A stretch of 64,000 nucleotides of DNA. Origin: Microthyrium microscopicum (Eukaryota). The translations under genes and the position numbers were made by a program. The notes beneath the pieces were generated by a model. That model was not told the DNA's origin. It ran no database searches and saw only the letters and a list, made by a program, of their open reading frames with translations. This document shows positions 25,622-64,000 of the stretch, in pieces (position 1 is the first letter of the stretch; each line of letters begins with the position of its first letter). Location of the stretch: assembly GCA_010405405.1 (NCBI GenBank), contig MU004230.1, forward strand, positions 530,627 through 594,626, written 5' to 3'.

Positions 25622-25726
25622 CTTGTCTAGATCAAAAGGTTATGAGAGTAATGAGGTCAGCTAAAGAGAACGACAAGAGACGGTACCAAATGCCGCTGGA
25701 CATGAAGTTCAATTTACCTCAGCGTG

Positions 25727-25801
25727 CTCAGACTCTAATTCAGGTTTAGCGTCTGATTATTAATAGTCGCTACGCTCCCTGACCCTAAATTAGAGCCTAA
25801 G
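25727..25801. repeat. Imperfect inverted repeat (23-bp arms, 29-bp loop) at the left edge of the RIP block
   Basis: 25727-25749 CTCAGACTCTAATTCAGGTTTAG versus reverse complement of 25779-25801 CTTAGGCTCTAATTTAGGGTCAG: 18/23 identical, and 4 of the 5 mismatches are transitions. Confidence 0.7.
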
Positions 25802-26379
25802 AGACACTTATATAATCTATACTATAATCGCCTTAACGGATTTTTAGATTTCTATTTATTCTTTAATTATACTATTACTATATATAAATTATTAAATTTT
25901 CTTATAAAAGGCTACTAAGTAAGTAATTATATATATAAAAATTAGGTTTATTTTAAGATTTAATGCTAACTACGTTCTATAAAAATCTCTCTATTTTATC
26001 TTACTTTAAGGAGCCTAACTTAGTAAAAGTTAATAACTATATAATCTTTTATATATATACGTATAACTACTATTTACTATTACTACTCCTATTATCTTTT
26101 CGTCCCTTCTCTTATATCTAATATATTTATAAAATACATTTATAACGCTTTATTTCGTATTATTAGCTAGTAATACTATTAGCTTTTCTATTATTACTTC
26201 TAGTAGTAATACTATTAATAAGTTCGTATTAGCTATAGCTTTATACTTTTACTATTCTCTTTACGTATTTATCTTAATCTTAAGGTCTATATTATATAAA
26301 TATATATTAATTATATTATATAATATATTAAACTATTCTAATTATATATAAGCCCTTTTAAATAATGCGCTAGATATTA

Positions 26380-26680
26380 CTAAAGACATATTAAACGTAT
26401 CTAAAGATATATTAAATATGTCTAAAGACGTATTAAACGTTTTAAACGATAAGTCTAAACGTTTCTTATAATATATTAAACGTTTATTATATTTTACTAA
26501 ACGTTTGTTATATCTTATTAAACGTTTGTTATATCTTATTAAACGTTTATTATATCTTATTAAACGTTTATTATATTATAAGAAATGTTTCTATAACGTA
26601 TTAAACGTTTTTATAATATATTAAAACTTTTACTAGTTATTTATTAGATATTTTATATATTCTAAACGTTTTATAACGTC
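26380..26680. repeat. 21-bp-period tandem array built on TAAACGTT
   Basis: Five units TAAACGTTT(G/A)TTATATCTTAT-like starting at 26477, 26498, 26519, 26540 and 26561, preceded by three CTAAAGACRTATTAAACGT-like units at 26380, 26401 and 26422. Confidence 0.85.
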
Positions 26681-26794
26681 TTAACTAAATAAAAGTATTA
26701 GATATTAACCCCTATCTACTACTCTATATATAAAGGCTATACGTTAGTATTACTAATATAGATATAGTTAATTAGAGACTTATATACTATTATT

Positions 26795-29700
26795 ATATCT
26801 AGTACTAAGCGTAAACGTAAGAGTAAACGTAATAAGGTTATAAGTAGATCTAAAAGCTAGACTAAGAATCTACGTTATTATAATATAAAGGTAGCTTAGA
26901 GAGATCTACTAAATAGGCCTAAATAAAATATATTTTTCCTTAGCTCTATTAGCAAACGTACTTATTCTACTTCTTATAGCTCTATATTATCTATAGCTAC
27001 TAAATTTAATAAAACTACTACTAGTAGTTAAGGTAATAATATAGCTAATTATTATAATAGTACTACTTATAGTAATAGCAATAGTAATAGAGATAGTAAT
27101 ACTAATAACTATATTAATAGGGATATAACTAGCAATATAGCTAATAGTACTAGTACTAGTACTTATAATAATAAAATTAATAATAATCTTATTAATAGTA
27201 ATAACGCTATTAGTATTAATTCTATTATATATCTACTTAGTCTATAATATGCTATTATACTAGATAAGTAAGTAAAGTACTTATAAGATTTTAATACTAT
27301 AATTAAAGTTTCTATACTTCTAACTATCTTTACTAATATACTTACTTAAGAGAATAATAAAGCTAGTATTAATATTACCTCTTTAGGCTAATAGTATTAT
27401 AAAGATTTTATAAAAGCTTTATTTAAAAGATTACTATATATATAGGAAAGTAAAAGGTTAGAAGCTAAGCTAAGGTAGGTAGAATCTCTATATTATATAA
27501 TTTTTAAGCAATAAGATATTATACTTATTACTAAGACTAAATATAGTAAAAGTATTATCTTTTAAGCTTTTAGTATTCTTATTAGTAAGGTTATTCTCTA
27601 GGCTATTCTCTTTACTTTACTAGGTTTAGAGTAGTATAAAGATATTACGTAGCTTCTTAGTATAAACCTAGCTATTATTTATTTAAGGTTAATACTTAAT
27701 AAATACGCTTAAGTCTATTATAAGTTACTTAATAGTACTATTACGTATTATCTACTTTCTTCTAAATAATTAATTAGTAAGTATATATAAAAACTACTTT
27801 AAGATCCTTAATTCCAAAATAGACTTAGTCTAGTTATTATTAATAAGGAACATCTTATTAAAGACTAAAGGAAATTCTTTTAAAAGGAATATTCTTAACT
27901 TTATATACTTTAAGATATTATTCCTTATTTCGTCATTTAGTTTAGTTACTTAGAGACTTTAATAGTAAAAGCTAAGAAGTTTTTACTTAATAAAGAAGAA
28001 TTCTAGCTATATAAAGAATACTAAGATATTACTTATACTACTAGGTTTATTTATACTACTATTAATAGGCTAAATTTAGGTTTTTAACTTTTATATATCC
28101 TAAAAGGGAAGCTTAGTAATTAGTTAAGGTTAAATATAGTCCTTAGTTAAGCTATTTAGAATCCTACTAATAGAGATTTATTTATAATATCTAAGTTTAT
28201 ACTATTAACTATAATTTTCTTAGATAAGCTATTAAATATAATATCTATTCTTAATTACCTATAATAAGCCTTAGTAAAGTTATATTCTAACTTTACCTAA
28301 AGTAATTAGCTTTCCTTAGCTAATATTTATACTATTATTTAATAGTATACTAAATTAACTTAGAATTTTAATTAAGATTTATAGTATATTTAGCTTAAGT
28401 AGTTTAATTCGTTTTGCTATATTATAGTTACTATAACTACCTTTAGCATAGGCGTTAATATTCTAAATATATATTACGTTATAATATAAGGTCTTTTATA
28501 AAGTAGAGTATTAGCTAATCTAGTTTAGAAGATTAGTTAAGTTAGTTATTCTAAAGCTAGTTATATTCTTCCTCTTCTATTAGAAATAGGTTTAAACTTA
28601 CTATTACCTATCTTACCTAATCTAGATAATAAAACTTTCTCTAGAGTTAGGCTATTTAATTATATTCCTTTTTATTTATTAGTTATTATTTTTCTACTAT
28701 ACTAGTTATTTAATACTTAAAGGTAGTATCTAGTACTAAAGTCTTCTTATAAGAAAGTAGATAATATATATATAGTAGTAACTACTCTTTAGGCTAATAT
28801 TAGTAAGGTTAATACTAAGGGCTATTTACTATTAGCTTTTAAGTTACTCTATATAATATAAAATACTAATTTTGCTACCTAACTAAGTACTTTAGTTACT
28901 ACTTAAGAAGCCTAGGCGTCTATTAATCTACTTAGTAGTTTAGCTATTATAGCCTCTATTAGTTATAATCTAAAAAGTAATAGATTATTAGACTAAATAT
29001 GCGTAGAAATTAGGTATAGAGCTATAATTAATTCTATTTAATTAAAGTTAGTTAATAGTACGCTATTATTAGATTCTAACCTTAGTTAGCCTTACTATTA
29101 CTATTAAGTTATCCTAGACTACCTAAGAGACGTTAAATATTATTAAGGTACTCTTATTAATTATAATTAATATTATAATATATATTAGCTAGATAAATTT
29201 ATTATATTACTATCTTAGCTTATTATAAAGAAGAAGCTTATAATTCCTTATATAAAAACGTAAAGGCAATATACCTTTAATAGCTTAAAATAATAAGCTA
29301 CTACGTAGTTAGATAAAAAGTATCTAATTACTTATTAATAGCTCTTATTTAGAGAGTTTTAGTATATAGGCTAAATTAAGTTAGTTACTTTAAGTATCTT
29401 TTAGGATTTTACTAACTTTCTATCTCTTATAGATAATTCTATAAACCTAAATACTATATAGAATTAAATATATCTTATATATTCTCTTTTATAAAAGTAA
29501 AGAGTTATAAATATAGCTACTTATAGCTAATTATTAACCTTTCTTATTAGTTCTAACTATTAAGCTTGCTATATAGTAGCGTTTAAATATAATAGACTTT
29601 TTAGGCGAGTTAGTTCTATAGTGCTATTATATTTATCTTTTATAATTCTAAGTTTTAGTACTTATTACTATCCTTCTAAAGAAGTTAAGCCTATTAGTTC

Positions 29701-30223
29701 CTTACTAGTAGACTATTTGCTAGGTTAGGTTACTTTAAGGTTTAGGTAGTTATTACCTATTATACGTTTAGCTACTTCTATCTTAGCCTCTTAACTAGTA
29801 TTTTCTTTATTATTATTATCTTAGCCTTTAGTAGTATCGTCTATACTTAGACTATTATTTTAAACTAAAACTAGGGTATCTCTTAATTTAAAGAAAAAAT
29901 AAGGAAGAGATTATCCTTATAAACCTAGATTAGTCTTTAAACTTTTAGTTAATAGTAGTCTTTCTTAACCTTTACTTATAATGCTAACTACTTCTTAATA
30001 TAATAGTAGTACTTTATATTCTTCTTTACCTAATATAGTTCTAGACTTATTCTTATTATATATACTATTACTAAATAAGCTTATAGAGTATTAGTTACTA
30101 AACTATTTAAGTAGCCTCTTACTCTATAATACTAAAAGTAGTTAGTTAAGCTTATTATCTTATTCTCTAGTAATTAGTAATTATAGTAGAAAGTAATAAT
30201 AGAAATTAGAAACTAGACGTTAG
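26795..30223 (+). pseudogene. RIP-inactivated RecQ-family (SF2) DNA helicase, ~1,140 codons
   Basis: All motifs lie in one frame and are recovered by reverting transitions. Motif I ACT AAG ACT AAA TAT AGT AAA AGT (27530-27553, ~AKTGYGKS). Motif II ATT AAT AAG GAA CAT...GAC TAA AGG...TTT TAA AAG GAA TAT (from 27839, ~IDEEHLIKDWG.FRKEY). HTTIDRPNL near 28050. Motif V ~IVATTAFGMGVNIPDV (~28420-28470). Motif VI ~QKIGRVGR (28526-28549). Zn domain ~CRRQVILDYLG...CCDVC (29090-29185). Start ATA(<ATG) followed by a TKRKR basic patch. End coordinate is approximate. Confidence 0.85.
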
Positions 30224-31149
30224 CCTCTATATAATAATCTTAATTACTATTTTCCTTTATCTTTACCTTCTATGAATAGTCTAAATATTATACTATATAA
30301 GAGGACATAATATAGCTTAGTTATTTTATAGCAAACCTAAGTAATTAATTTATTCCTAATGCTTTCTTATAGTTTAGGAGAGACTACTATACTAAGAGAT
30401 AAGTTATCTTCTATATACTTATCTTATCCTTTTAATTTAGATACCTTTATTAATAAGCTAGTATATTAAGAAATAACTAAAAGTAGCTAAAAAGTACGCT
30501 AGTTTAAGTATGTATTAGAAAATTTATTCCCTTATTAATATATTTAATAATATTTCTATATTTTATATATTATTAGATAGCCTTAATTATTATTAGGTTA
30601 TTTATCTTATAGTATTAAGTATATACTAAGTTTTATAAAGGATAGTTAAGATTTTAGAAACTTTTTATATATTTATACTTAAAATAATATAGCTATTACT
30701 AATTATTATATTATTATTTATAGAGTTACGTAGATCCTATTTATTAGTATTAAAGGTTATTAATATTAACTATATTTCTTTATATATACTTTTAATGCTA
30801 TCTATATAATACTAATAGTATATCTATCTTAATAGATTTTAAACTATAATTCTATAATGTTCTTTATATCCTTCTCTTACCTTAGCTATCTTAGATAGTA
30901 CTACTCTTTATTACTTTATCTTATTCTTAATTATCTATATATTATTATTATCCTTATTATATATTAAATTTTATCTTTAAATATTTAGTTATATACTTTC
31001 TCTTTTAAAATAATTTAATAATTAAACGTTATTAAACGTTTTAATTAATAAATCTTAGAAAGTACGTTATAAAGTATTCTATTAATAAGATTAAAACTCC
31101 TATTAGATTATATCTTCTATTACCTTCTCTTTTAAAACCTAACTTCTTA

Positions 31150-34100
31150 TTAATTTAAATTTACTATTAAATTATTTCTAAAGTTTACTAACCTTTTAAA
31201 TAGTAAGAATATTTAAGGATTATTATTATAAGTAGTTAGTAGTAACTATTATTAACTAAATAGATAATATTATTTATATAGATACCTTTAGTCTATATAA
31301 TCTATTATTTATAAAATCTTTTACCCTCTATATCTTTTTCCTCTCTCCTAAGTATTACTCTTTTAGCTTTAACTTATCTTTATAAGTTATTTAGTATCTA
31401 TTATATCTTTAAGTCTTATTATTTAGCCTCTAAATAGCCTTTATTATATTCTTAGTTTATCTATCTATTAATAGGTACTTTAAGAAGAGTACTATTTATA
31501 TATTCCTTTATTTAGACGTTTATTATTACTATAAACTATAATCTAGTTACTTTTACCTCTAAAACTCTTTATAAGTTATCTTTTAAGGTTTTTTATTAAG
31601 TATCTAAGTAATAATTTATAGTCTTAATATTATTATACCTTAGTTAATCTTATTAAGTTATAGGCCTAATTTTAGCCTTTATAATAGCTATATTTCTTAC
31701 GCTACTCTTTATTAGTATTATAATTAACCTTTTATTTTAGACTTATTTAATTTATATTTATATAGTTAGGAACTAAATATACTATCTACTCTCTAACTTT
31801 TTTTACTATCTTCCTTATAACTTACTCTTTTATTACCTCTAAGCTCTACTATTTTTATTAAGATATCTTTATTAATTTTTAAATTTACGCTACTTAGTCT
31901 AGATTTTTTATTTTCTCTAAATAAAGAGCTAGGAAATGTTAATATTCTAGCTTCTTCTATTACTTTACTATTAAGATTACTAAATTTATATTATAATAGC
32001 CTTTTATCTTTTATCTAAGAGCTATTAAATATAGCTATATCTATAGGATTAAGTAAAGATAATAATATAGTATCTAAGTAAGAGAATTAACTAAATAATA
32101 ATAAGGTTATTTAATATATAGTTAAGAATAGGCTAACTTTAGATATAGCTCTTACTCTATATTAAGACCTTCCTAAGTATAATAGTAATAAATAGCTATA
32201 TCTAAATAATTAGCTATAGCTTTAGGTATCTTAAGAAACTAAGTCTTTTATTTTAGATTTAGATAAAGATAAGATACTCTTTTATTACGTTCCTTATCCT
32301 CCTATACCTTAATATTCCTCTTCTTTATAGCCTATAATAACTATAATATCTATTTTTATTCCTTAACCTTTATTACTTAGGAAGAATTAAACCTAGTAAT
32401 ACCTTACTTATAATCTAGTAACTAATTAGCTTCTTCTACTAGTATAATTACGTATAGTTTATATCCTCTTTACTCTAATAGATTATAGTATCTTTAGTTT
32501 TACTTAGTATAAACTTATTACTTCCTTACCTAAGTTTTTAAGTATTATATATCTACTATAGATATTTACTCTAACTTTTAAAGAATCTTTAGTTTATAAT
32601 TTAAAGTTTATAGTATTAAACGTTATATCTATACTATATCTAGCTTTTATAGTTTATAAAGCTATTTATATTACTCTTAAAGTTAATTAGCATAATTATA
32701 CTAACTTTAATTATTATAAGTTATATCCTATTAAAGAAGCTTACTAGTATCCTAATATATTAGAGTATTATTACTATCTTTAGTAGTACTTTTATCTTTT
32801 ATTAAGTCTAATAAGTATTAGTATACTTTTAGATTATTTAAGCGTTACTAGTTAATAGGTATTAGGTTATTTAGAAGCTATTCTTATTTCTATACTTTAT
32901 ACTTATTAAGATATAGCTATTAATACTTACTATCGCTACTAAGATTAATAGCGTTAGTTAGAGATAAAAAAAATATAAAGAAAGTAATATAAATCTACTA
33001 ATATTTAGTATATACGTTAGTTATTAGATACTTAGGCTAGGTATATATAATTTACTATTATTATATAGTAAGTTATTAATACTAATATTACTATAAATAT
33101 GCTTTAGCTATAGTAGTAGAGACTAATAGTTTATATTACTATTACTTCTATAACTCTAACCTACTTTTCTTCTTTACCTTCTTAATTTATAGGTTCTTCT
33201 TTATATAATTAACTCTTAGCTTCTTTATAAGCTACGTCTATACTTATGTTAGTTTTCTTATTTCCTACTATTATTTTATTAGTAGAAAGTTTTTTATCTA
33301 TTCTAGCTATTAATACTATACTAAGAGCGTCTTTACCTCTACTAATAAGATTTTCTCTACCTAGGTCTTTAAATAAGAATAGTAATAATAGGGATTTTAA
33401 CCTATTTAGTAATAATTAGGAAATAAATAGTCTATTTATTAATAATAAGTATAATAAATAAGATAGTAGTATTAAGATTTAGGCTATTGTTCTTTTATAG
33501 CTAATTATATATCTATAGACTAAAGCTAAAAACTATATTATAGCTAAACTTAAAAAAGAATTATAGGTTAAAGCTATGCCTACTCTTTAATTACTAGCTT
33601 AGTTACATTATATACTTACGTTAATTCTTTCTTAGCTATTTCTAAATTTATAGTCTAGTTCTCTTATATTAATTTAATATATATTAGGTCTAGTTAAGCT
33701 AATTAGTCTATATATAAGTAATAATAATTATTATTCTCCTCCTATAGCTCGTTACCTATCTTCTTTCTAAGCTTTAATTACCTCTATTATGCCTAGTAAT
33801 TAACTAGTAATAAATACTTTATCTCTAATTCCCTTAACGTTTATTAACTCTTTTCGTTTAATTACTTTTATCTTAACTTCTACTCTTCTAATTAATAATA
33901 CCTATATTATTAATAATTATAGTCTTATACTTCTACCTCTCTATTTATTTTATATCTTAACTTCTACTCTTTCTATTAGTAATACCTATATTGCTAATAA
34001 TTATAGTCTTATATATCTACCTTTTCCTCTATCTCGTCTTATAGATAGTATTCTTTCTACCTTAACTACTATATTATTTAAAGAGTCTAAATAAGGCCCT

Positions 34101-35400
34101 TAAAGTAGGATTCCTTAAGTAGAAACTCTAAATAGTTTACCTTAGTATAACTCTACTTAATTTAGCTAGTAATATTATAAAGATCTAGCTATATATAAGA
34201 ATAATACTAAGTAATATAAATTTTAAGGTATTATAACTATTATAAAGACTAATCTTAGCTATTAAGTTTATAGTAATAATTAATATACGTATTATAAAGA
34301 AAGTAATTATAAATATTAGGTTTATACTAAATAGGGTTATAAGGTTATTAAGAGTATAACTAATAGCTATACTTAGTATTACTTTAAATCCTAAAAGGAT
34401 AGTTACTTATTAATAAATTACGTTTCTAATAAAGGACGCTATATTAAGGCTTAAAGTAAAAAAACTAAGAAGTGTCTAGTAAGTAAAAAGACTTAAAAGT
34501 AGGCTAATAAGAAAAAAGCTTAGTAGTCTTACTAATAATAATTTAGTAATAAAGATTAGAATAAGGACAATAATAGTTAGCAAGTTACGCCTCCTAAAAT
34601 CCTTATCTCTAATCGCTATAGGCCTAAGTATTAAGGACCTTCTTTACTACTTTTACTAAAACTAATAATAGAAGTTTAGTTTCTCTTTTTATATTAATAG
34701 TTAAGTTTAAATTATAGTAATTATAGATTCTATTATATAGTTATAATTATATTTCTATTAAATTCTATTTAAATCTAAATCGTATAGTACCTAAATTATA
34801 TAATCTAATTACTACTACGAAAAATATAGTCTATATACTTTATTATTATAAATTTTATATTGCTTCCTTCTAGCTTCTAGTCTAAGATCCTCTATATATA
34901 TATTCCTATAGCTTCTTTTACTTTTATTAATATATTACTTATATATTCTATATATTTATTATATTTAATAGTAAGCTCCTCTAGTTTTCTAATAACGTTT
35001 TCTACTATTATAGTTTTAGTAGGCTAGTACTATTAAACTTAGAACTCTTAGAGAATAATAGTATAAAGGATCTTTATAGCTAAAAGTAAAGTTATCTATA
35101 ATATTCTAGTTTATACTTTTATCGTCCTAAGTTATAATAGTTATATAGGAAAGTCTAAAAAGAAAGCAAATAATATATTATAGCTAAGAGTAGATTTATT
35201 TATAATACCTTAGTTTATAATTTTACTATTTTAAGTTATAATAGTAGTATAAAAGGTTTAGTAAAAAAGTAAATAATACTAATAGAAGAGTTTAGTAATA
35301 TTAAGATATAAAACTTAGTTTATTAAATATAGGTAACTAAGTATTTATAGTAAGTAGCTATATTATTATTTCTTAGTAAGATTAAGCTAGAGGTAATTAA
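31150..35400 (-). pseudogene. Long RIP-degenerated coding relic of unknown family (with an internal ~84-bp duplication at ~33869-34025)
   Basis: Minus strand is purine-rich with Glu/Lys-type codons held in consistent frames, broken only by TAA/TAG. Relic splice signals near 33620 and 32940-32960. Boundaries approximate. Confidence 0.35.
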
Positions 35401-35710
35401 ATATTTAAATCTCTTATTTATAAAGCTATATTATAATTATTAATAAAGTTAAGTCTTATTATAGCTAGTACACTAGTAAATATACTATAAAAAATATTAA
35501 ACGTTTTAAATATTTTATTATAGATACCTATATAGCCCTAAATTTATTTACCTATTCCTTCTAAATCCTAACTATATTATATACTTTTATATCTTAATCT
35601 TATATTTTTTATAGTAGCTTTAAGAGACTTCCCTTTATATAGGCGTCTAGTAGTATTTATTACTATTTACTTTATTTAAAAGCCTATGTCTTAATATCTA
35701 GAAATATATA

Positions 35711-35810
35711 ATAACGTTTAATAACTTTTAATAACTTTTAACAACGTTTAATAACTTTTAATAATTTTTAATAATATCTAATAATGTTTAATACCTTTTA
35801 ATAATTTTTA
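35711..35810. repeat. 10-bp tandem array (ATAACGTTTA / ATAACTTTTA), ~10 units
   Basis: Directly visible 10-bp periodicity. The reverse-complement unit TAAACGTTAT matches the core of the 26.4-kb array. Confidence 0.85.
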
Positions 35811-36099
35811 AAGCCTTTTATAAATTTTTGCTTTACGTTGCTATATATAACCTTATAATTATCTTTATTTATATTCTTAATTAAAGGCTTTTATCATTTT
35901 TTCTTATACTACTTCTTAACTAACTTTAAATATAGTTATATAGGTTTCCTTTCTTAGGGAAGTAGTTATATTTAACAACTATATATATATTTTAGCTAAT
36001 ATATTTTATAATAAGAAAAAGTTAATATTTTAAGTTTATTATAATTTATTAATACTATAGGCTTACTCTTCCTTCTTTATATTATTCTATTTATTCTTA

Positions 36100-39000: not shown

Positions 39001-39200
39001 TTATTTACGTAATAAGTATACTTAAGGAGCATAAGGCAAAAGTTTTATTAAAGAGTTAGTCTATTATTATTAACATACTAGATAACATAATTTATAACCT
39101 TAATAAATCCTTATACTTATAGGTTTATATTAAAATTAAAATCCTTATTCTAATTAAATTTAACTATAGTATATGCTTTAAAGACTATAGCGTATTTATT
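36100..39200 (-). pseudogene. RIP-degenerated coding relic(s) of unknown family
   Basis: A minus-strand frame read manually across ~37860-36640 keeps protein-like codons, with stops only of the TAA/TAG type expected from CAA/CAG/CGA/TGG. No family recognised; boundaries approximate. Confidence 0.3.
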
Positions 39201-50793: not shown

Positions 50794-51352
50794 TAGATAA
50801 TAAAGATAGCATCCCTAAGTTAAATCTATCTTAATATACTTTTAAGAGCTACTACTTAGCTAATAAAGACACTATCTTTAAATTAAAATTAGTATAGCTA
50901 TTTTAGAGAACTATTATATAACTAACGTAAATACTATCTCTAGATTAAAACTAATATAACTATTTTTAATTAATACTAATTAGCTAATAAAGAAACTATC
51001 CTTAAATTAAAACTAATGCAACTATTTTTAAGCGATATAAATTAGCTAATAAAGAAATCATTCCTAAATTAAAACTACTATAGCTATTTTTAAATGACAC
51101 GATATAGCTAATAAATAAACTATACCTAAATTAAAACTACTATAGCTATTTTTAAACAACACGATATAGCTAATAAAGAAACTATACTTAAATTAAAACT
51201 ATTACAACTATTTTTAAATAATATAATATAGCTAACAAAGAAACTATACCTAAATTAAAACCGCTATAGCTATTTTTAAATAACACGATATAGCTAACAA
51301 AGAAACTATACCTAAATTAAAACTACTATAGCTTTTTTAAATATACATTATA
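50794..51352. repeat. 62-bp minisatellite, 9 units (second copy)
   Basis: Starts at 50794, 50857, 50919, 50981, 51043, 51105, 51167, 51229 and 51291; same unit as the 48-kb array. Confidence 0.92.
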
Positions 51353-51897
51353 TAAGTAGTATAACTAATACTAATACGTTAGATTCTAAGGAGTAATTTT
51401 TAAAAAGCACTTATTTAACTATATAATTAGTATAAATACTTACTAACTATATAAGATTTTAGCCTTTAAGAGAATATACTATATATATTTTATATACTAT
51501 ATAGAAATATGTCTTCTTTATTTATATCTAAGACGTATACTCTATTTAACGTAAATATATTTAGATATTTATAATATCTTAGTAAATAAATAAGAAGTAA
51601 TTAGCAAATATAGAATATAGTAAAAGTCTATATAATATATAAGTATATTCCTTAAAGTATAGCTATTTATATAAGGTACGTTATAAGATTCTATATATTA
51701 AAAAGGCTAAGATATACTAATATATTAGAAGTAATACTATAGATTATATATTTCTAAATTATTTACTATATCTATAATAAGTATAAGAATAAGGATAAGC
51801 CTACTTACTAAAGTATTTAAATTATAAAAGGATAATTAAAATTAGAAATAAAGAATAATATAAGTTATATATAAAAACTAAACCTTAAGTAAGTATA

Positions 51898-52123
51898 TGT
51901 AACGAGCTGCGGAACTCAAGTGAGCAGATAATTAGATTGTATTCTAGAATCTATGAATAGGAGAGAGAGAGAAGAAGATCTAGAAGAGCTGTAGATCTAC
52001 GAGGGAAGTAAGTTTGCTTGGCAGATCCTTAGGCGTACTAACCCCCTTAGGTCTAGTGCGTAATCTTATAATAAGATCTCTCTTATAATACTATTGTAAA
52101 GCCTATAAGGAGGAATTATTATA
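51898..52123 (-). repeat. 3' LTR of the Gypsy element
   Basis: Starts TGTAACGAGCTGCGGAAC and ends AGGAATTATTATA (RIP of ...ATCATCACA). Aligns to 59324-59549 with transition differences. Confidence 0.93.
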
Positions 52124-52189
52124 TGACCCTCCTCTTTAGCATAGCTCTCTAGGCTATAGACTACTAATTATATCTACTTTCCTAATCTA

Positions 52190-52243
52190 TTCTATTCTAA
52201 TCTAGTCTAGTCTAGTCTGGTCTAGTTTAGTCTAGTCTAGTCT
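52190..52243. repeat. (TCTAG)n pentanucleotide microsatellite inside the Gypsy 3' UTR
   Basis: TCTAG TCTAG TCTAG TCTGG TCTAG TTTAG TCTAG TCTAG directly visible. Confidence 0.8.
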
Positions 52244-52539
52244 AATAAACTTTTAGTAATAAATGATATTTTGATCCTTCTATGGTGCAATACTAACCTT
52301 ATTAGTCGTTTAAAGCATCTCAACCTCTAGCCTACTAAGGTAACTGTTAAGAAGTATTAACGAACCCTAAGATATCCTTAGAATACTCTGGTTCTTAAGT
52401 CCTAGTAGTCTAGTAATTAGTAGTCCTATTAATATAGGGGAATTAGTAGTATAATTATTTACTCTTCCTAATTAGTAGGAACGTTATTAGAGTTATAATT
52501 AATACCATCGCTAGTAGGCTTTAGTATTGGTAGTATCTA

Positions 52540-55500
52540 GGTAGGATATAGGCCTAGCTTGCTAGGGTGCTAAGCGTAAAACTTAGCAATAAGCTTTAGC
52601 GCATTCTTAGTGGCTATCCAATCATGCTATTTAGCTTTATCGTAACTAGTGTACTTAATCTCGTATTATAGCTTCTTATATTAACTAGCAAAGCGGCTAT
52701 TAACAATAGCGTTAATAGACCATTCATTATCGTCTATAGTTTCTCTAACGACTACTAATAGTAGATTAGCGTGCTTAAGCAACTTAGCGTCGTCTATAAT
52801 ATAGTAGAGGACCTAGGCGTAAAAGACATTATGCATCTTTATAGAAGAGGAGAGATTAAGTTTATAGGTAACGATATTAATCTTCTTAATTATGCAAAAG
52901 GGACTTATGTTCTTATCGTCTAGAGTCTTTAAAGGACGTAAAGTAGGGTAGTTCTATATATCTAAGCAAACCTAGTCGCCTAGTAACAGGTCTAGAGCTA
53001 CGTAGCGATAGCGGTTAGCGTATTCTACCTATTAAGCTTATGCCTAGATTAATTGCTCTATTAGATAATCGTGCATCTTAGCGTAACCCTTCTACATCAT
53101 GTCTGCATTAATAGCTTCCTTATTAGCAGCTATAGAGGCGTTTATAGGTTTTAAGAGGCGATATAAGGACTTAAGGCCTGATTGAGGGTTAAATCTATTT
53201 TAAGCTTTAAAGGATATAACTCTTATGGTAGTATTCACGACGGAATTGACTACAAATTTAGCGAAGGGCAGAAGGGCTACCTAGTTATCTTAATCCTAGT
53301 TAATAAACACGCGTAGGAATTGCTTAAGTACTATGACTAAGATTTCTATTATACTATTAGTCTCAGGGTGAAATGCTATACTAAGATAAAGTATTATGCC
53401 TACGCGTTTATATAAGCGCTTCTAGAATACAGAGGTAAATTAGCTACTACAGTCTAAAAGAATTGTTGATGGCTAGCTAATAAGTTTCTATACGTGGTTA
53501 ATAAAGGCTAGTACTATTAAGTCTACAGACAGGTCTAGTAGTAGGATAAAACGTTAGGTCTATATATAGCGATTAATAACTACTATAACGTGCTAATAGA
53601 TTATACCTTAGTATAAATAGTGAGGTAGTAAGACGGTAAAGTTAATAGAAATATTAGACTACACGCGCTTAGGGAGAGGGAATTAACGTAGGAAGCCTTA
53701 CTTCTTTTAACAGATAGGTTTAGCAAACACGCATTTATAGCCTTTAACAAAGCTCTTAACGTCTTATAACATTTTAAGCTACTAATAATCTTCTTATAGG
53801 TAGTAATAAGTTATTACTACTCTACTATAGCCTATAGCTTTATAGCTATACGCACTCTATATAGCGCGACGCTAAAGCTTACCTTAAGGGATAAAGATCT
53901 AGTTACGATAGAGGATTATCTTATTAGTAGCTACTATATAGTCTCTAAGCTTAATTTGCTCTTATTCTAGAGTACCAAAGGGTAAGAAGAGTTAATAGTC
54001 AGTCTTAGCGTAGCGAATAGCAATTATTGTTTTGTTATACTTCGCTACGTTCATAATATCCTATAGGAACTAGTCGCTATTAAAATCTAGGGATAGGTTA
54101 TTTCCTAAGGAATTAAGTAGCTTACCCTTAGGCGTCTTGTTATTACTAAGAGACTCTCCTATAAAATTAAGTAGCTTACTTATAGAATTAGAAATATCTA
54201 ACTTATCTTAAGTAATAGTAGCTAAGTATAGTATTAAGAGGTAGGTAGGTTTAATAAGTAATATAGCTAGCTTTACTACGTGTTCTATATTAAATTAGTA
54301 TAGGAATAGCAAAGGTTAGACCTATTAAGAGATATAAGGGTTATTATTACTTTATAGAATGTCTTATAACTAATAGGTAAGGGCATCTACTTTTCTATTA
54401 GCTATACCTAGGTAGTACTTTATCTTAAAGTAAAACTAGGAGAGGAACTTAGCTTATTTAGCTTATCGTTAAGAGAGACGTTTTGTTATTATAAACGTCT
54501 AAAGGTTATAGTAATTAGAGAATACTTAAATAGGGTTAATAGAGCTAAACAGCTCTAGTTCTTATTCTTTAAATATATAGATAATAGCTAGAAGCTCTTT
54601 GTTATAAATGTCATAATTACATTCTACTAAGGTTATTTTTTTTAAGAGGTACGTAACTAGATAAAGCTTCTTATTATTACCTTTTTAAGAGAAGACTATA
54701 GCATAAACCTAATTTAAGGCGTCTATCTCTAGCTATGTTTCTTTTGTATAGTTAAAGTGACGTAATATCTTAATAGACGTAAAGTCTTACTTTAGCTTCT
54801 TAAATATACATTCCTTTAGCCTATTAGGGTCCTAAGGAAAGATTACTATAGCGTCCTTCTTTATAAGTACTATTAGTAGTGCTATAGTCTTTAAATATTT
54901 AAGAATAAATTAGTAGTAGAAGTTAGTGAAGCTAAGGAAAGCTTAAATATCTTTTACTAAAGAGGGACGTTACTAGTTAACTACGCTTTAAACCTTCTTT
55001 AGGTCTATCTTAATGCCTTTAGTAGTAATAATTAGGCTAAGGTATTTAACTTATTAAGTATTAAATTTATACTTCTAGATATCTAAGTATAATCCTACTT
55101 TACTTATTACTTCTAGGACTAAGTAAGTATAGGCAATATAGCTAGCTTTAGTGTTACTAAAGACTAGTAGATTATCTATATAGCCTATAATAAAGTTATC
55201 TAGGTAATTAATTAGAATATAGTTAAAATAAGCTTAGAAAGTCCTTAGGGCTCTAGTAAGGCTAAAGGATATAACTTTAAATTTATATAACCTATAATAA
55301 GTTAAGAATACGGTTTTATGTTCGTTGCTAGGTTTAATGCAAATATATATAAAGATAGTAATAACATTAAATTTAGAGAAGTATTTTGCGTAATAGATAT
55401 AGGTAAGTATTTCTAGTAGCTATAGAGGGACGTTATGATTCTTTTATATAATCTTATTAAGTTTATAATAATTAATATAAACTTAAATTCCTCCTTCTAG

Positions 55501-58500
55501 CTTATATATATATAGTATTAGTATAGCGTAATACAACTTGCTAGCCTAAACTTAATCTTAACTAAGTATCTAATTAACGTATTATTTTACGACGAGGAAT
55601 TCTTAGTAACCTAAGCTATTATAGTAACGTTTAAGAATTATAGCGTTTAGGATAATATTAATAAAGTAATCCTATTCACTACGGTATAGTACAAGTTTAT
55701 TACCTAATTTTAGGTTAAAGACGTCTATATAATAATAATATTCCTTTAGTAGGCATTTAAGAATCTCTTCTCGTAAGAAGGGAGGCTTATTATACTTCTC
55801 TTACTACTTTTTAAAATCCTTAGGTAAGATTTTGCTTAAGTTAATAGCAACGTCTTCCTTTAGCATAGGATCTAGATCTAGAGGTTTCTTTTCCTTTCTA
55901 TCTTTAAAGTCATTAAGCTAGATTTTACTAAATTGCTAGCCTTATTCTAGTAACTTAATAAAGGTAGTAGTGCTAACTATAGTAACGTTTTTAAAGTAAG
56001 GATCTATTAGATTAACTAAGTAGCCCTTATAATCTATTAAGATTAAGTAGCCTACTAGTAAGTAGTATATAAGGTAGTAGTCTAAGTTAAAGTAGATTTA
56101 CTTCTTACTTCTTTTAAAAATAATCTTATAGAGGTTAATCTAAGGGTTACTAAGGATAAGGTTATAGCTAGCGACGTTTATAACAAAGTAGTAGATTTAT
56201 TTAATATACCCTCCTAAATAGACATTAACTATAGCAGCTTTATTAACTTTTATAATAGCCTTACTGTTAGCTAATTATATAATTTAGGGGATAGAGAGAT
56301 TAATAGTAAGGATCTTATATTGTTTAATAAAGTTAGGGTAAATAATTCTTATTGCTCTACTACTAGTATCTATAAGGATATTAATTTTTAAGTAGTAGCT
56401 TTATCTTAGAGAAAATATAGTATTAGAAGTAGTCTATTAATTGCTTACTATAGGTATAGTAGCTACTTCTTAGGGATAGAAATCGTATGCTATAAAGGTA
56501 AGAAATATCTTAATAATAGCTAGTTTGCTATTATTAAATATAACAAGCTCTAAGGATAATGCTTATTAGAGATTACCTTCTAGGTGCTAGATAGTCTTAT
56601 TAACCTTATATTAGATTTATTCTTTAGAGAGAACTAGTTTAGGGTTAGGTTCCTTCTTCTTCTATTACTAATTATACGCTTCTTACTTATTTAGCTCCTT
56701 TGCGCGTCTCTATAGAGGAGCTTTTAGTTTTTTATATCATTACTATAATTATACTTATCGTAATTATTCTCTATGATTAGGGACTAAGGAGATTAAGTAA
56801 TAATTTAATTATAGATAGTAGTGAACTTTATAATAATAGTAGTAACTTTTAGTTATATTTTAGCATCTAAAAGGGCGTCTCTATCTTTATATAGTACTAA
56901 GTTGTACTAATAGCTATAGCCTTTCTCTCTATACTTTATATAATGGTTATTAGCCTTTAAGGTATTATAGATATTTAAAAGGCAATTAAACTTAGATTTC
57001 TATCTACTACCCTTAGCTACTAGACGATTATTATTATCGTAGCTTCACGAATTAGTAGAGGAAATATATTTAATATAACGAGTAATAGTATATAGGCTCT
57101 TAAGGAAATCTATAAATATTTTTAATTCTATAAAGAGCACTCTCTCTACGAATTTTGGGAGTAGAAGAAGACGCATTTTAATAATCTTATCTTAATTACT
57201 AAGCTTAGCTTCTCGTAAGTTCTCTAAGAAGTGAGCTAGGAATTGTTTAAGCTTCTTAATAGGCTTTATTATAGCTTCTTAACTTTTAAGCTAAGTCTTA
57301 GTAGTAATATAGCTATCTTTAATACTATACTTATAATCTAGATTAGACTATATCTTTACTATAAATAAATATAGGTTAGTTAACTTATGGTTACTCTACT
57401 TATTAATAGTGCTAAATACTTAATCCTTTATTGCTCCTTAGACGACTTAGATCTTAGAGGCTTCTATAAGATAGACTTATGTATTATTATTAAGGTAGTT
57501 TAGTACTTTGCCTTTCTAAGCATAGTACTTTTGCTTATCCTTTCCTAAGAAGAGTAAAGGCTTATCGCTCTATATTTTAAGGAGAGAGGCGCTACTAATT
57601 AAGTTAAGGTTAGAGAAAAGAGTAGTTTAATATAAGTCTAGTACCCCTAGAGGTATATTTAAGTTAGGTTAGTTTATATCCTAAGCTAGAGAGGTCTAGC
57701 AAAATAGATCGTTATCTACTAACTTATTGTAATTAAGATAGAGATTAGTTATCTTAGTAGCTAAGGGTTTCTTTTAGAAGGCATTAACCTAGGCTTAAAG
57801 GATAGTAGCTTTGTCTACCTTCTTCTATAGAGCCTTATAGTATTTACTAATTTTATTAACGTAGGTAGTGAGTACTTCCTTAAGTAAATTATTATTATAT
57901 TGTAACTCCTATACTTTTTAGTAAGTAGTTACTACTTCCTTAAGGGCAATGGTATTATTTTAAATCTACGCTTTAAGATAAGTAATCTACTTTGCGCGTT
58001 TATTATTAGTTTTAGCTAAGTCCTACATCTCTTCTTAAGCTTCTAAAGCTTCTTCCTAGAGAGTATAGATTAAGTCTATATTGCAAGCGTTTATATTCTA
58101 CTTAATTTTAAAGAGGTAGGCTATAGTTTAAGAGGCTAATAATAAAGCGTAAAGCTATATAACTAAGTCGTCTAGCGTAATCTCTTCTTTTAATAGACGT
58201 TCTAAGTCTATACCTAATTTAATTAAGTAGTAAGAGTAGTAATAGAGGTCTAATTGCTTTTCTTTATAATAGAGGTATACTCTTACGTCTTTTAGCTTAT
58301 TACCTTCTTTACTAGGCATCTTTCGTGCTTAAGTAGCTTAGAAGATTAGAGGGTTCTTATTAATAGTTAGAGTAACTAGTTAATTAAGGTTTACTACTAT
58401 AGGGTAGTAAGACATCAATATAGGTAGTACTTTAGGGCCTTTAGCTTGCTAGTATAGTTCTATTAGCTATTTATGCATTTTAGGAGAAAGTCTAGTGTTA

Positions 58501-58700
58501 TTATTAAGTTAAAAAGGAGCTAGTAGTTAGTTATCTTCTATGTTTATTTAGTTTAGTAAAGTTATTTAACTAGTATTTTAAGGGGCGTCTTCTAACGCTT
58601 TAGTCTCTTTGCCTTTATAGCCTTATTCTAATAGATGATTATCTTCTAACTTATCTTTATCTTCTAACAATGCTCTTAAGTCTAGTTCTAGCAATTTTAA
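52540..58700 (-). pseudogene. Gypsy gag-pol relic (Zn knuckle, AP, RT, RNase H, IN, chromodomain)
   Basis: De-RIP translations: C.KCGEKGH (~56900-56950); ILVDTGG (~56360-56385); KTAFLT.YGLYEFKVMPFGLTGAPGTFQ (~55235-55320); YIDDLLVFS (~55160-55185); ETDASD (~54715-54735); NYDIYDKELLAII (~54580-54620); LSTAFHPETDG (~53350-53385); EWSIDAIVDSRF...LQYEIKYTGYD...FHAQHP (52560-52730). Gag start is approximate. Confidence 0.88.
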
Positions 58701-59323
58701 TAGTCTTAAGACACTCTTTACTAAATTTACTACTTTTTAGGTAGTATCTAGTTATATTATATCCTAAGTATTAGGTTCGCTTTAATACTTAGTACGTATA
58801 GCAGAGGGGTAACGCAATAGAGATAAGTAACGTAAGTATATAGGAGATAGAGATAGGCGCTAATTATTAGGCTAAGTATAAGTAACTAGGGATAGCGAGT
58901 AGGCTATATAGCTATTAACTTAGGTTTATTAGTTAGGAGCCTTATTAGCTATAGTTATAAATAATAAAGAAGAGTACTAGGAGGGAATGCTTATTTATTT
59001 AGCGCGTTTTAATAGTAAGTATGTTAAGTATAATTATAGATATTTAGTAGTAGTATAGAAGACAAACTTTAGTATTCTATAGAACTAAGGATAAGGGATA
59101 ATTAACGCTTAGACTATTAATAGGTTAAAGAGTGTTAGGGAATCCTAACGCTCTAATTAGATAAGGGGTTAGTAGGGCTAACAGATTTAGTAAATCTATA
59201 AAGGATCTTTAATAGGGTCTAAGACTACGCGTATAGGATATTAATCTATATAGGCGCTTCTTTAGAAGTAAATTCTAGGGTACATAGTATAAGCGCGTAG
59301 GTAGTTGAATGGTTCGTAGATTA

Positions 59324-59549
59324 TGTAACGAGCTATGGAACTTAAGCAAGCAGATAATTAGATTATATTCTAGAATCTATAAATAGGAGAGAGAGAGAAG
59401 AAGATTTAGAAGAGCTACAGATCTGCAAGGGAAGTAAGTCTGCTTGGTAGATCCTTGGGCGCGCTAACCCCCTTGGGTCTAGCGCGTAATCTTGCAACAA
59501 GATCTCTCTCACAATACCGCTGTAAAGCCTGTAAGGAGGAATCATCACA
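59324..59549 (-). repeat. 5' LTR of the Gypsy element
   Basis: TGTAACGAGCTATGGAAC...GAGGAATCATCACA, followed by TSD GTATA. Confidence 0.93.
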
Positions 59550-59598
59550 GTATATTATTTAACGTTAGCCTAAATAAGTCTAACGTTAAATAATATAC
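59550..59598. repeat. Perfect 19-bp inverted repeat with 11-bp spacer
   Basis: GTATATTATTTAACGTTAG (59550-59568), spacer CCTAAATAAGT, CTAACGTTAAATAATATAC (59580-59598). Confidence 0.9.
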
Positions 59599-62053
59599 CT
59601 AGTTAACGCTTTAACGTTAGGCTATAAATAGAGCAAATATTAAGCTAATATTACAATTTCCTAAGTTAAATCTTTAAATATTAAGATTAACTAAACTAAT
59701 AAGCTAATTAATACTAAATCTTTAACTTCTTAGCTATAGACTTTACTAACTTATCTATAATACTAATTATTAACTCTAGTTTCTAAAAAATAGTAAAAAG
59801 TAAATATAAATAACTACTATCTTTAATATAATATAAGTATAATATAGGCTAATTATTATATATAAGTAAGTACAACTAGTTTATTAACTAATTTTACTAA
59901 CTACTATATTAGAATAGATAAAAGTAAAATAGTAGGTTTAAGACAACTAAGTAGAATTAAATAGATAACTAGATTAATAGCTATTTATATTACATTTATA
60001 TAAGTAAGTATTCCTTAAATTTTAGACTTTCTATATACTAATTATATATTAATAATATATAATATAACTACTATTATTAAACTATTACTTAAAAGTATAT
60101 CTTAATAAGTACGTTAAGTTTCTAGTAACTTATAATACTAATAAAATAGATATAGAATGCTATAATACTTATAGTATACTATATTTCTATTACTTATTAT
60201 ATATATAAATATATTAAATTAGCCTTAAGATACCTAGTCTATAACAAAATATATTATTACGTTTATTACTACTTATAGAATATACTAAAAGTAAGACCTA
60301 ACTAAATGTCTATTATAGCCTTTTAATTACCTATAACTATTACCTAAAATAAGATAGTTAAAAGAGTTCTAAAGATAGCTTATTACAATACTATAGGCTC
60401 CTATAATTATTAGCTAAGAAGGACTAGTTAAATTAAGTAATAGTAAAATACTAATTATAGTAATATTACCTCTTATAACTATTACTTATTAAGATATACC
60501 TAATTTAAGTATTAGAGAAAGTCCCTATTCTAATATTATAAGCTAATCTATAAGTCTAAATACCTTAAAGAACACTACTACTAAAGCTAAGAACCTACCT
60601 ATCTACTATTAACCTAATAAAAATCATCTATTAATTTATATAGAAGATATAATGTAACTACTACTCTTTAATAGTTACTAAATTATATAGTTACTTATAT
60701 TAAGTAGAATTCTACTTATTAGTAATATAGCCTTTATAATTAATTAAAATAGTAGTATTTAGGCATAAGGCTAAACTTAATACCTACTAAACTAGTACTA
60801 TATATACTACATAAAGATATAAAGCTACTTACCCTATTCTTTATATAATTAGCAATATAGTACTTATAAATAAGTAAGATAGTATCTAAGGCTCTAATAA
60901 TTCTTACTAAATAGGTATCTAAGCTACTATAGAAAAATATAATTTAGTTACGCTAACTAAAGTCTTAGCATTAGTATCCTTAGATATAACTTATAAATTA
61001 TATCTTAACTTAACCTTATTATTCTTACCTACTAAGCCCTTCTCTACCTCTTTAATAAGACTAAGCAAACTACTTAAATCTATACTACTCTTAATACTTA
61101 TGCTAGCCTTATTAACCCTAACTTACTTACTATTTAGATCCTCCTCTTTATATCTTTTATTAGCCTATCTATTCTATACTTATAGCTCTATACTACTCTT
61201 ATTAACTATACTACTATTATCTTATATAATCCTACTCTATAGGCTTACTAGCTTATTAAAAGAGGTAAACTATTTAATATTTATAATATATTTTGCTATA
61301 CTATTAAACCTAATACTATTATTTTACTTCTTTATTCTAATTAACCTAGTAAAATTATTAGTAGTTTCTAAGTAATTAATATTATTTACTAGGTTAACTA
61401 AGATAAAAGCATAAGCCTATATAATAATTTTAGAGCTACTTATTATAGTAGTATAAGTATCTATATTTACTACTTAGAAGGATATAGCTAGAATAAGGAT
61501 AGAAAGTACTATAACTATACTAAAATACTACTTAGAGCTATTACCTACTTTATATTTAAATAAGCTTTCTATTAATATAATAATATATAAAAGACTCTAC
61601 TCTATAATAAGTAACTATAGAGTAGTTAGACTATCTATAACTAGCAGCGTAATTACTTTAAAGTTAAACTAGAATAAAAAAAATAGGAAATAAAAATTAG
61701 AGTATTACTAAGTCTAAGAAGTACTTATTTAAGTAATTTACCCTAGTAATAATATTATAAGTAATAGATTCTATAATATAATAATAACTACTCTTATTAA
61801 TTACTATAAAGGAGTCTACTTTATAGCACTATTATAGAGTAACTAAACTACTTCTAACTAGTAATTACTATGTCTACTTTAAGGTAGTTTCTATATAGAG
61901 ATTATGTATAAGGAAGTTAAATATAGCTTATTATTAAAATATACTAGTTATACTCTTATAATAGGTATTTACCTAAGTTCTAGCTATATAAGAGAGTATA
62001 AGTATTAATTTTAGGTAAGATAAAGATAGAGCTATTAAGAGCTAGATACCTAG

Positions 62054-62420
62054 AACTATAGGCGTAGTAACCTCTTTATTAATAATATAGTATACTTCTA
62101 ATAAAAGCTACTAAATAGATTTAAACGTATATTAATTTATAGTAATATTATACTACTACTTTTAAATTATATCTTTACTATCTTAAAAATAATATAGTTT
62201 ATAGTAGGTAATATATAAAAACTATAGGCGTAATAGCTACTTTATTAATAATACGTTATATCTTTAATAAAAGCTTCTAAATAGATCTAACTATATATTA
62301 ATTTATAGTAATATCGTTTTGCTACTTTTAGATTATATCTTTACTATAGTAAGACTAATAAGGTATTTAGTAATAACGCTTAAGAACTATAAGCGTAGTA
62401 GCTAAATACTTAGAATTATA
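62054..62420. repeat. ~165-bp diverged tandem repeat (2+ units), possibly a relic protein repeat
   Basis: AACTATA(G/A)GCGTA recurs at 62054, 62220 and 62385, with alignable sequence between (TATATTAATTTATAGTAATAT, ATTATATCTTTACTAT). Confidence 0.7.
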
Positions 62421-63150
62421 GGCATAAAATAAGTAAAGCTTCTACCTTCTTATTAATATTTTGCTATAGATTAATCGTACTTCTAAGACTTTATAGTCTT
62501 CTAATAGATATTAAAAGAAGAAGCGTAGCTTATAATACTAGTATTAAAGTAGATAGAGTAACTAAAGGCTATATTCTAAATAATAAGAGACTTAGTATAG
62601 GTAGTATCCCCTCCTTATTATACTTATCTTATATTATAGTAATACTAATAATATTAATACTTATTAGTTTACTAAGGACGTATTTTTTCCTATTATGTCT
62701 CTTTAGTTCTCTTAAACTATTTACCTTTAGTAAGTAATTTTATAGCTTTAGCTATAACCTCTATATACAACTTTGCATATCTTAGTAAAAAATTTATTAT
62801 TTAATCCTTAGTACGTATAAGGGATTTAGAAACTAGAATATAAAGGATAGTTTACAAAATTATTACTAAATAAAGGTAGAATAGCTAAGTAGGCTAGTTA
62901 ATCTTTAACTTCTTCCTTAATATATTATACGTCTATTTATAGTATAATTTTAAGTTGCTTACTACTAGAGTTAGTAGTTCTATTAGGTAAAGTAATAAAT
63001 AAAGATATAATACTAAAGGATAAAATATTATATAGTAGTAAGAGTTTATAGTAAGTTATAGTTTATATAAATATACTATATTATATGTCTTTATATAGTA
63101 GTAGATAGCTTTACGCAATATTATATAATATTAAATATATTAACTACTAT

Positions 63151-63226
63151 TAAACTATATTAAACTATATTAAACTATATTAAACTATATTAAATAATAT
63201 TAAATAATGTTAAATATTATTAAATA
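63151..63226. repeat. 10-bp tandem array (TAAACTATAT), ~7 units, followed by TAAACGTTTTAAACGTTT
   Basis: Directly visible 10-bp periodicity. Confidence 0.85.
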
Positions 63227-64000
63227 CTCCTATACAAATACCTAAATAAATACTTAAACGTTTTAAACGTTTTAGCTTAGATTAGGAGTTACTAAAGTAT
63301 AAGAACCTAGGTAATAAGTTACTATTTAGGATACTTTTACTAATAGTCTTTACGTAATAGAATACGTATTTTTAATAAGTTTATTTTGCCTAATTATCTT
63401 TATCTAATTAATTATAAATTAATACTTATAATAGTAATTATTTTTCTACTAGACTATCTATATAAATAATGTAATATATATACTATAAGTAATAGCATTC
63501 TATTCTAATATACTATATAAAAAAGAATTATTAATAAACTAACCTTCCTTATAATAACCTAGCCTAGCTATCTCTATTAGTAGGATTCTATATATTTGCT
63601 AATAAAAAATAAGAACTCTATAAATACTTTTACTAATAGTATTAGGAAGTAGTCTAACGTAGTATTTTATAATTAAATTAAGCTATACTAAGAGTAAATT
63701 AATATAGTAGTTTTTTTTTTAATAGCTAATAGTAAATATCTTTAAGCCTACCTATTAGCGCCTATAATTAGTACTAGCTTTAATAGTAAAGAGATAATAT
63801 ATATAACTAACTATAATACCTTTAATTAATATACTTTAGTATATTACCTATACTTAGGTAAGTAATATATAAGTTAGTTTCCTATAATAAAAATATAGCG
63901 TATATAATAAGGTAAGTATAACTTATTAATATTTTAATAATATATACATACTAATAGTAATAGAAACATAAATAATAATACCTAAGTATAATTATACTAT

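Follow-up and report, generated by a model that had tools for sequence, protein, structure and literature searches.

The DNA considered here is a 64,000-nucleotide stretch of the Microthyrium microscopicum genome (assembly GCA_010405405.1, contig MU004230.1, positions 530,627 to 594,626; this whole stretch is called the window, and positions are counted from its first letter). Its right-hand part is an AT-rich block that has been altered by repeat-induced point mutation (RIP) and whose leading gene is the relic of a RecQ-like helicase. On its left, the block adjoins an MFS_MOT1 molybdate-transporter gene (24,287-25,621, minus strand, 3.9e-60); it begins upstream of the start codon of that gene, which lies about 100 bp from the block's edge. 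A preliminary description, made from the letters alone, had proposed the block as a candidate giant helicase-led mobile element that may be of an undescribed class or the captain-distal end of a Starship. We consider it probable, instead, that about 26.3 to 35.8 kb holds an incomplete copy, now dead, of a cut-and-paste transposon, and that the remainder of the block, outside a tandem duplication and a Gypsy element, consists of the debris of other repeats. The block, its edge and the parts of this candidate copy are as follows.

25,720-64,000 (no strand): RIP-mutated AT-rich block, with a G+C content of about 20% (about 26-34% in the part occupied by a Gypsy element)
25,727-25,801 (no strand): imperfect hairpin at the GC/AT edge, with arms at 25,727-25,749 and 25,779-25,801
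26,380-26,690 (plus): array of 21-bp units with the motif TATTAAACGTT, upstream of the helicase, in the place of the relatives' subterminal arrays
27,395-30,142 (plus): relic of a RecQ-like superfamily 2 (SF2) helicase, in a single reading frame with 71 in-frame stops
30,143-34,076 (no strand): spacer without assignment between the helicase and the small open reading frame (ORF), about 2.5-3 kb longer than that of the relatives
34,077-34,421 (plus): relic of a small Cys-rich ORF, termed x, located with RIP-aware references and a profile
35,709-35,829 (minus): array of 10/20-bp units with the inverted TATTAAACGTT motif, matching the relatives' internal array after ORF x

The left edge of the block is as sharp as had been described. 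The G+C content is 0.41 to 0.55 throughout positions 1-26,000 in 1-kb bins (0.48 at 24-25 kb and 0.41 at 25-26 kb), falls at 25.72 kb to 0.21, having been about 0.48, and then stays at 0.18 to 0.23 at 26-52 kb and 60-64 kb and at 0.26 to 0.34 at 52-60 kb. The composite RIP index switches at the same place, from -0.30 to -0.95 in 13 of 13 2-kb bins left of 26,001 to 1.27 to 1.78 in 19 of 19 bins from there on. TpA/ApT (1.47 to 1.87) and (CA+TG)/(AC+GT) (0.05 to 0.41) were likewise displaced in all 19 bins and were normal in the 13 earlier ones; RIP in the block is saturated. The hairpin reported at the edge is also present. Its 23-nt arms are 78% complementary and its folding energy is -11.1 kcal/mol (z -1.99), and it is only weakly unusual, 5 of 200 shuffled sequences having folded equally well.

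Few stops interrupt 26.7-30.5 kb in the frame of nt 25,721, and RIP-compatible helicase motifs I (nt 27,530) and II (nt 27,836) are found there. When 27,221-30,820 was translated with X at the stops and used as a query in an exhaustive HMMER search, it matched 146 proteins at E<=1e-3. Of these, 43 also passed E<=1e-10, and the best reached 1.7e-27 with 27% identity over query residues 57-434. All 14 of the matches that were scanned contained DEAD and Helicase_C domains, and 37 of the 44 PDB matches of the best HMMER match were RecQ-family helicases, led by Escherichia coli RecQ at 4.8e-21. The relic was also aligned in a RIP-aware manner, with each codon converted to a posterior over ancestral amino acids that allows for C-to-T and G-to-A changes. 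Three references scored 512 to 542 half-bits, versus at most 91 for reversed references. The alignment pairs the relic with residues 85-942 of a 958-amino-acid relative, and 174 of the 826 aligned pairs are identical and a further 236 are RIP-compatible; the relic's TKTKYSKSIIF and YYLLSSKXL are RIP-compatible with the family motifs TGFGKS(L/I)IF and H(I/V)LLGPEQA. Since this alignment spans nearly the whole relative without a frameshift, the RecQ relic at the head of the block is real, as had been proposed, and nearly full length. The preliminary description was also right in that RIP killed the gene. The same relic gave 0 families in Pfam (E<=10) and 0 matches in a phmmer search of PDB. Upstream of the core and in the helicase frame, 26,920-27,220 (plus strand) is an Asn/Ser/Thr-rich low-complexity stretch with a TAATAG-type 6-bp repeat, which follows a Lys/Arg-rich run and may represent the N terminus of the helicase ORF in degenerate form.

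The family to which we assign the relic was defined here from 80 loci kept out of 164 relatives of the helicase in metagenome contigs. Its genes are arranged as helicase (plus strand), small Cys-rich ORF x (plus strand) and then a convergent gene that encodes an N-terminal part plus DUF6589 and whose full-length products have 880 to 990 amino acids. The helicase gene stands near the left end of the relatives and reads inward. DUF6589 was recognized by Pfam at 2e-67 to 4.7e-70 in three of three intact helicase neighbors, and in 19 of the 20 loci with at least 5 kb of flank it lay downstream on the opposite strand, 0.6 to 6.2 kb past the helicase. The elements end in a terminal inverted repeat (TIR) of 18 to 20 bp, TTATCTCATAAATCAGAC. 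With up to four errors allowed, 27 of the 80 loci, drawn from many samples, had the terminal 20-mer; 13 loci had it at both ends and so delimit elements of 8.6 to 13.5 kb. Target site duplications (TSDs) of 8 bp, which vary in sequence, flanked 10 of 10 copies with placed ends (six perfect and four with one transition). The relatives of the helicase thus sit in TIR- and TSD-bounded elements of unexceptional size, a result that speaks against both of the identities proposed earlier; the leading gene belongs to an ordinary-sized TIR transposon family and not to a giant class.

Several members of the family show how it is built and how it decays. In one metagenome sample, an 8.6-kb unit was present in 11 copies or more that are 82 to 92% alike (loci L022 and L026-L041, e.g., L026:9167-17811), with perfect terminal repeats and 8-bp TSDs. 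Because these copies have a G+C content of 0.37 to 0.44 and are without any ORF of 120 amino acids or more, the family has undergone RIP-like mutation in another fungus too. In L026, a direct AACTCCTGCA array is located near the left end and an inverted TAGGAGTTTA array follows ORF x. The 13.5-kb member (L005:1926-15464) has about 4 kb of extra DNA, with ORFs that have no Pfam match, between the small ORF and DUF6589; inserted or cargo DNA is thus tolerated by the family at this position.

Four parts are kept by the window copy in the order of the family, from the left array through the helicase and the small ORF to the inverted internal array, so that the left two-thirds of an element is represented in its proper arrangement. 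The relic of ORF x was found with five references that scored 80 to 129, versus shuffle maxima of 50 to 72 (129 versus at most 50 for the best of them), and with a profile that scored 130 versus a null of 72; Tyr stands where the family has Cys, as RIP predicts. The motif TATTAAACGTT had 38 matches, versus 5.3 expected. Its exact copies are all on the plus strand at 26,431-26,609 and both on the minus strand at 35,713 and 35,743, and the two arrays (26.39-26.68 and 35.71-35.79 kb) are direct on the left and inverted after x, placed as in L026, with a motif that itself differs from that of L026. Of the related repeat arrays that had been described for the block, these two hold up in that they share TATTAAACGTT, and the 62-, 84- and 108-bp arrays showed no relation. 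The succession of long relic genes, regularly spaced over the two strands, that had also been described was not confirmed, the helicase and one small ORF being the only genes identifiable.

A likely function for the partner gene of the helicase was suggested by its predicted fold. An AlphaFold model of DUF6589, built from 40 sequences, reached a predicted local distance difference test (pLDDT) score of 85.7. The top match in an exhaustive structure aligner was P element transposase (Z 6.7, over 244 aligned residues; root mean square deviation, 5.4), followed by Hermes (Z 5.4) and by retroviral and Ty3 integrase cores (Z 4.2 to 4.9), and a Foldseek search of the model against PDB returned nothing at E<=0.001. 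These matches are modest in score but coherent as a set, and we infer from them that DUF6589 is an RNase H-like DDE transposase. The inverted repeats and the arrays of short motifs would be the sites where such a protein cuts and joins DNA, and the helicase would act as an accessory, as in AcademH and KolobokH. A full-text literature search for DUF6589 found no related paper.

Against the assignment of about 26.3 to 35.8 kb to this family stand the parts that are missing or misplaced. Within 25.5-64 kb, three single DUF6589 references scored at most 68 in the RIP-aware alignment (null, 61 to 77), an eight-sequence DUF6589 profile at most 78 (null, 96), a profile of the N-terminal part of the transposase at most 56 (null, 56), and 15 further references at most 93 (null, 56 to 75), with no DUF6589 relic. 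Two intact relatives that had been mutated in silico to 21% G+C served as a control, and references 23 to 55% identical to them scored 514 to 1,036, versus at most 69 for reversed references. Since a relic with this degree of simulated RIP is still detected, the absence of DUF6589 is real, at least for a relic damaged by RIP alone, and the window copy is therefore not a whole element. Nor were convincing ends found. A RIP-tolerant scan of the window for the terminal repeat gave 2 matches at two or fewer mismatches, versus 5.7 in shuffled sequences, and 0 of 195 candidate end pairs in the window had RIP-compatible 8-bp flanks. One pairing, 26,316 with 51,832, was rejected; chance could account for its 7 of 8 shared TSD bases among 11 AT-rich candidates, and its terminal bases differ from the family repeat in ways not compatible with RIP. 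Moreover, the spacer between helicase and x is 3.9 kb in the window, versus 0.8 to 1.6 kb in the relatives. Finally, the debris of other repeats is an assumption, and Gypsy pol references found the known Gypsy only.

Despite these points, the order of the parts that are present leads us to prefer an incomplete family member between about 26.3 and 35.8 kb. Such a copy would either have lost its transposase gene or have become separated from it, being truncated near 35.8 kb in the first case and parted from the transposase by later insertions in the second; insertions of this kind do occur in the block, since a Gypsy element with its TSD proves one. A long TIR between the left edge and 35.8-36.7 kb, sought after collapsing bases to purines and pyrimidines, scored 65, versus 60 on average and at most 81 under the null. 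Three short stretches resemble the family's terminal repeat. An 18-nt stretch inside the edge hairpin (25,749-25,766, minus strand) includes an exact TCAGACGC; it is oriented the wrong way, toward MOT1, and about 1.3 such matches occur per shuffled window, so that it may be due to chance. The other two (47,817-47,834 and 50,573-50,590, plus strand) lie about 220 bp before each of two 62-bp arrays farther right and have three and two mismatches to the RIP-tolerant consensus, which is not above chance. Their arrangement with the arrays is reminiscent of the family's left end; they are not followed by a second helicase relic, and none was found elsewhere in the block with the RIP-aware helicase references.

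Right of about 35.8 kb, the following features were recorded.

35,830-46,360 (no strand): RIP-mutated DNA without assignment, searched for relics of helicase, DUF6589 and Gypsy pol with negative results
40,367-41,056 (no strand): 340-bp tandem pair around a 10-N gap, from the self-comparison
46,361-51,647 (no strand): tandem duplication of a 2.5- to 2.7-kb unit across a 40-N gap, with copies at 46,361-49,077 and 49,118-51,647
48,037-48,770 and 50,793-51,354: 62-bp minisatellite, one per tandem copy
51,898-59,549 (minus): nested Ty3/Gypsy long terminal repeat (LTR) retrotransposon of 7,652 bp, with LTRs at 51,898-52,123 and 59,324-59,549
59,555-64,000 (no strand): RIP-mutated DNA without assignment, in which one frame (plus, about 60.75-61.9 kb) is stop-poor and 3-periodic

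The block was compared with itself by BLASTN and then in purine/pyrimidine-collapsed form, which is immune to RIP transitions. Upon collapsing, identity rose from 90% to 99.1% for the 2.7-kb pair (126 transitions versus 8 transversions), from 95% to 99.4% for the 340-bp pair (15 versus 2) and from 87% to 100% for the 226-bp LTR pair (31 versus 0). Because the differences are nearly all transitions, the duplications beside the gaps, which had been noted before, are true repeats that RIP drove apart and not assembly artifacts. The nested Gypsy that had been reported was likewise recovered. It has ends of the form TG..CA, a perfect 5-bp TSD (GTATA at 51,893-51,897 and 59,550-59,554), and reverse transcriptase, RNase H and SH3_Tf2-1 domains in one minus-strand frame; the LTR pair, the TSD and the reverse transcriptase-RNase H-integrase pol together place it in Ty3/Gypsy, and it is an independent insertion. 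The element is less RIP-mutated than its host DNA (G+C content of 0.26 to 0.34 versus about 0.20, with a pol frame that is still readable), and it would therefore have inserted after most of the surrounding RIP damage or have passed through fewer RIP cycles. No further internal repeat or LTR pair in the block rose above a reversed-sequence control in the collapsed comparison.

About 20 kb of the block is without family assignment. None could be given to 30.1-34.1, 35.8-46.4 or 59.6-64 kb, nor to the duplicated unit at 46.4-51.6 kb. Stop-poor frames, of about 1 kb each and none of them assignable to a gene, are present at 38.6-39.4, 41.6-42.4, 43.1-44.2, 45.0-46.1, 46.9-48.0 (duplicated at 49.9-50.6) and 60.75-61.9 kb, a signal that strand composition and periodic repeats can also produce. 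The last of these (60,750-61,900, plus strand) has the fewest stops and the strongest 3-periodicity in the block, with 10 to 13 stops per 250 codons versus 19 to 49 in the other frames. Leu, Ile and Tyr abound in its translation, and a word-based protein search with 60,701-61,960 (plus strand) found no relative, the sensitivity of such a search for relics of this kind being probably low. Pfam, with stops as X, gave 0 families over 25,720-46,400, 46,300-49,077 and 59,500-64,000 (49,118-51,799 being left out); this silence carries no weight, because the true helicase relic was missed too. A codon-class periodicity measure in purine/pyrimidine space and a RIP likelihood coding score were weak or miscalibrated and did not single out the helicase itself. 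A RIP-aware self-comparison at the protein level was uninformative, the biased composition driving it into a linear regime with null scores above 1,000.

These results bear on a second explanation, in which a truncated helicase element is followed by a nest of unrelated older transposable element relics (Copia, long interspersed nuclear element, Mutator, Fot1 type and others), each once multicopy and together forming a classical AT isochore. The nested Gypsy with its TSD, the extreme RIP indices everywhere and the break in the family layout at about 35.8 kb are all as expected of such a nest. No second transposable element family was identified besides Gypsy, however; the eight Gypsy pol references scored 277 to 844 on the known copy and did not exceed the null elsewhere, apart from spill-over at the edges of that element; and the collapsed self-comparison showed no further LTR pair or internal repeat above the control. 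We therefore regard this explanation as a real contender, though distinctly less likely than an incomplete transposon beside the debris of other repeats, which is the simplest account of the DNA right of about 35.8 kb outside the duplication and the Gypsy.

A third explanation retains part of the giant element in that a single cargo-carrying derivative of the RecQ/DUF6589 family would run from the left edge through the block, with its transposase and right TIR beyond 64 kb and with the Gypsy and the tandem duplication as later additions. More than 27 kb does remain when the Gypsy and the gap duplications are removed, and no right end is visible in the window, as the preliminary description had stated. 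The family order is kept to 35.8 kb and then gives way to RIP-mutated DNA without a recognizable end, at the very place, between ORF x and DUF6589, where L005 has its extra DNA; the missing DUF6589 relic could sit right of the window, and RIP is uniform over the block. Uniform composition, however, is uninformative once RIP is saturated. The largest of the 13 two-ended relatives is 13.5 kb, and in all 19 loci with both genes the helicase and DUF6589 are 0.6 to 6.2 kb apart, whereas the net distance here would exceed 23 kb. Independent insertions demonstrably occur in the block, none of its DNA was identified as a cargo gene, and the family layout was followed only to about 35.8 kb, one later part being the Gypsy. 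A giant derivative is thus improbable, and it is retained because the right end is outside the window and because the extra DNA of L005 is at the matching position. If true, it would be a Starship-sized element (more than 27 kb net) moved by a DDE transposase and a helicase and not by a tyrosine recombinase.

Two other explanations fare much worse. The block could be a subtelomeric region with a RIP-mutated telomere-linked RecQ helicase (TLH) gene, since TLH genes are RecQ-like and multicopy and, in PMC3105345, are counted among the RIP-affected telomeric repeats of Leptosphaeria maculans. In 10.1101/2024.02.27.582403, TLH ORFs are described as 4.7 to 4.9 kb long, with a TLH domain, C2H2 motifs and flanking telomere repeats. 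The relic, at 2.75 kb, aligns end to end with helicases of 780 to 1,000 amino acids that lie inside TIR- and TSD-bounded transposons, and the window contains 0 telomere-repeat runs, intact or RIP-tolerant; ORF size, domains and telomere repeats all disagree, and we reject this identity as very improbable. The captain-distal part of a Starship is less probable still, since the block is like Starships in its large size and missing right end and in nothing else, its first recognizable gene, the helicase, comes from a family of TIR transposons 8.6 to 13.5 kb long, and no Starship-specific feature was seen (DUF3435 was absent from the Pfam results, which also miss the true helicase relic).

Elsewhere in the window, and unrelated to the block, a MutS-family mismatch-repair gene with domains I, II, III and V spans two long ORFs at 5,119-8,229 (plus strand), which are presumably split by an intron.

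The candidate giant new element thus becomes mostly ordinary, namely, probably an incomplete, RIP-killed helicase-bearing transposon at the edge of AT-rich repeats. Its relatives describe a widespread ascomycete transposon family with a RecQ-like helicase, a Cys-rich ORF, DUF6589, TTATCTCA... termini, 8-bp TSDs and a size of 8.6 to 13.5 kb, and the predicted fold suggests a likely role, that of a DDE transposase, for the Pfam family DUF6589. Moreover, Pfam and PDB sequence searches miss a genuine, near-full-length relic at 20% G+C that exhaustive HMMER searches and RIP-aware codon alignment recover, a gap in sensitivity that matters for the annotation of RIP-mutated regions.

Among known systems, the block as a whole is like the AT isochores and large RIP-affected regions of Pezizomycotina such as L. 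maculans, which, as described in PMC3105345, also have a sharp GC/AT boundary beside a normal gene and combine saturated RIP with nested LTR elements. No difference was seen; most of the block is not resolved into known families.

P element and hAT transposons have 8-bp TSDs, as does the family, and the transposases of the P element and Hermes are the best fold matches of DUF6589 (Z 6.7 and 5.4). The likeness is limited by the modest Z scores, the silent Foldseek search and the absence of Pfam P or hAT domains from the family proteins, and P and hAT elements are not known to carry a helicase. Kolobok elements have TTAA as their target, unlike the relatives, with their variable 8-bp TSDs.

Fungal DNA transposons with RecQ-type helicases are already known, in the form of KolobokH and AcademH. 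KolobokH elements are described in the relevant part of PMC9587614 as fungal DNA transposons with a RecQ helicase located downstream of the transposase domain, whereas the helicase of the relatives is a separate gene at the opposite end of the element, convergent with DUF6589. AcademH, known here from the descriptions of citing papers, is a fungal helicase-encoding lineage of Academ, the helicase domains of which are named in PMC10799480; the supplements of that paper contain none of DUF6589, PF20231 and AcademH. A TSD of 9 or 10 bp is given for it in the portion of PMC10045372 that treats it, versus 8 bp in all ten copies of the relatives, the ends of the window copy not having been found. 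The window copy differs further from AcademH in that no transposase relic was found in it. The comparison with a helicase-bearing transposon of the AcademH kind, which the preliminary description had raised, nevertheless proved to be the relevant one. AcademH and the family are alike as fungal DNA transposons with TIRs, low copy number and a length of about 10 kb, in which an SF2 (DEAD plus Helicase_C) helicase is encoded separately from a transposase of the DDE type (predicted in the case of the family). The family resembles AcademH in content, although its TSD length does not fit the AcademH report.

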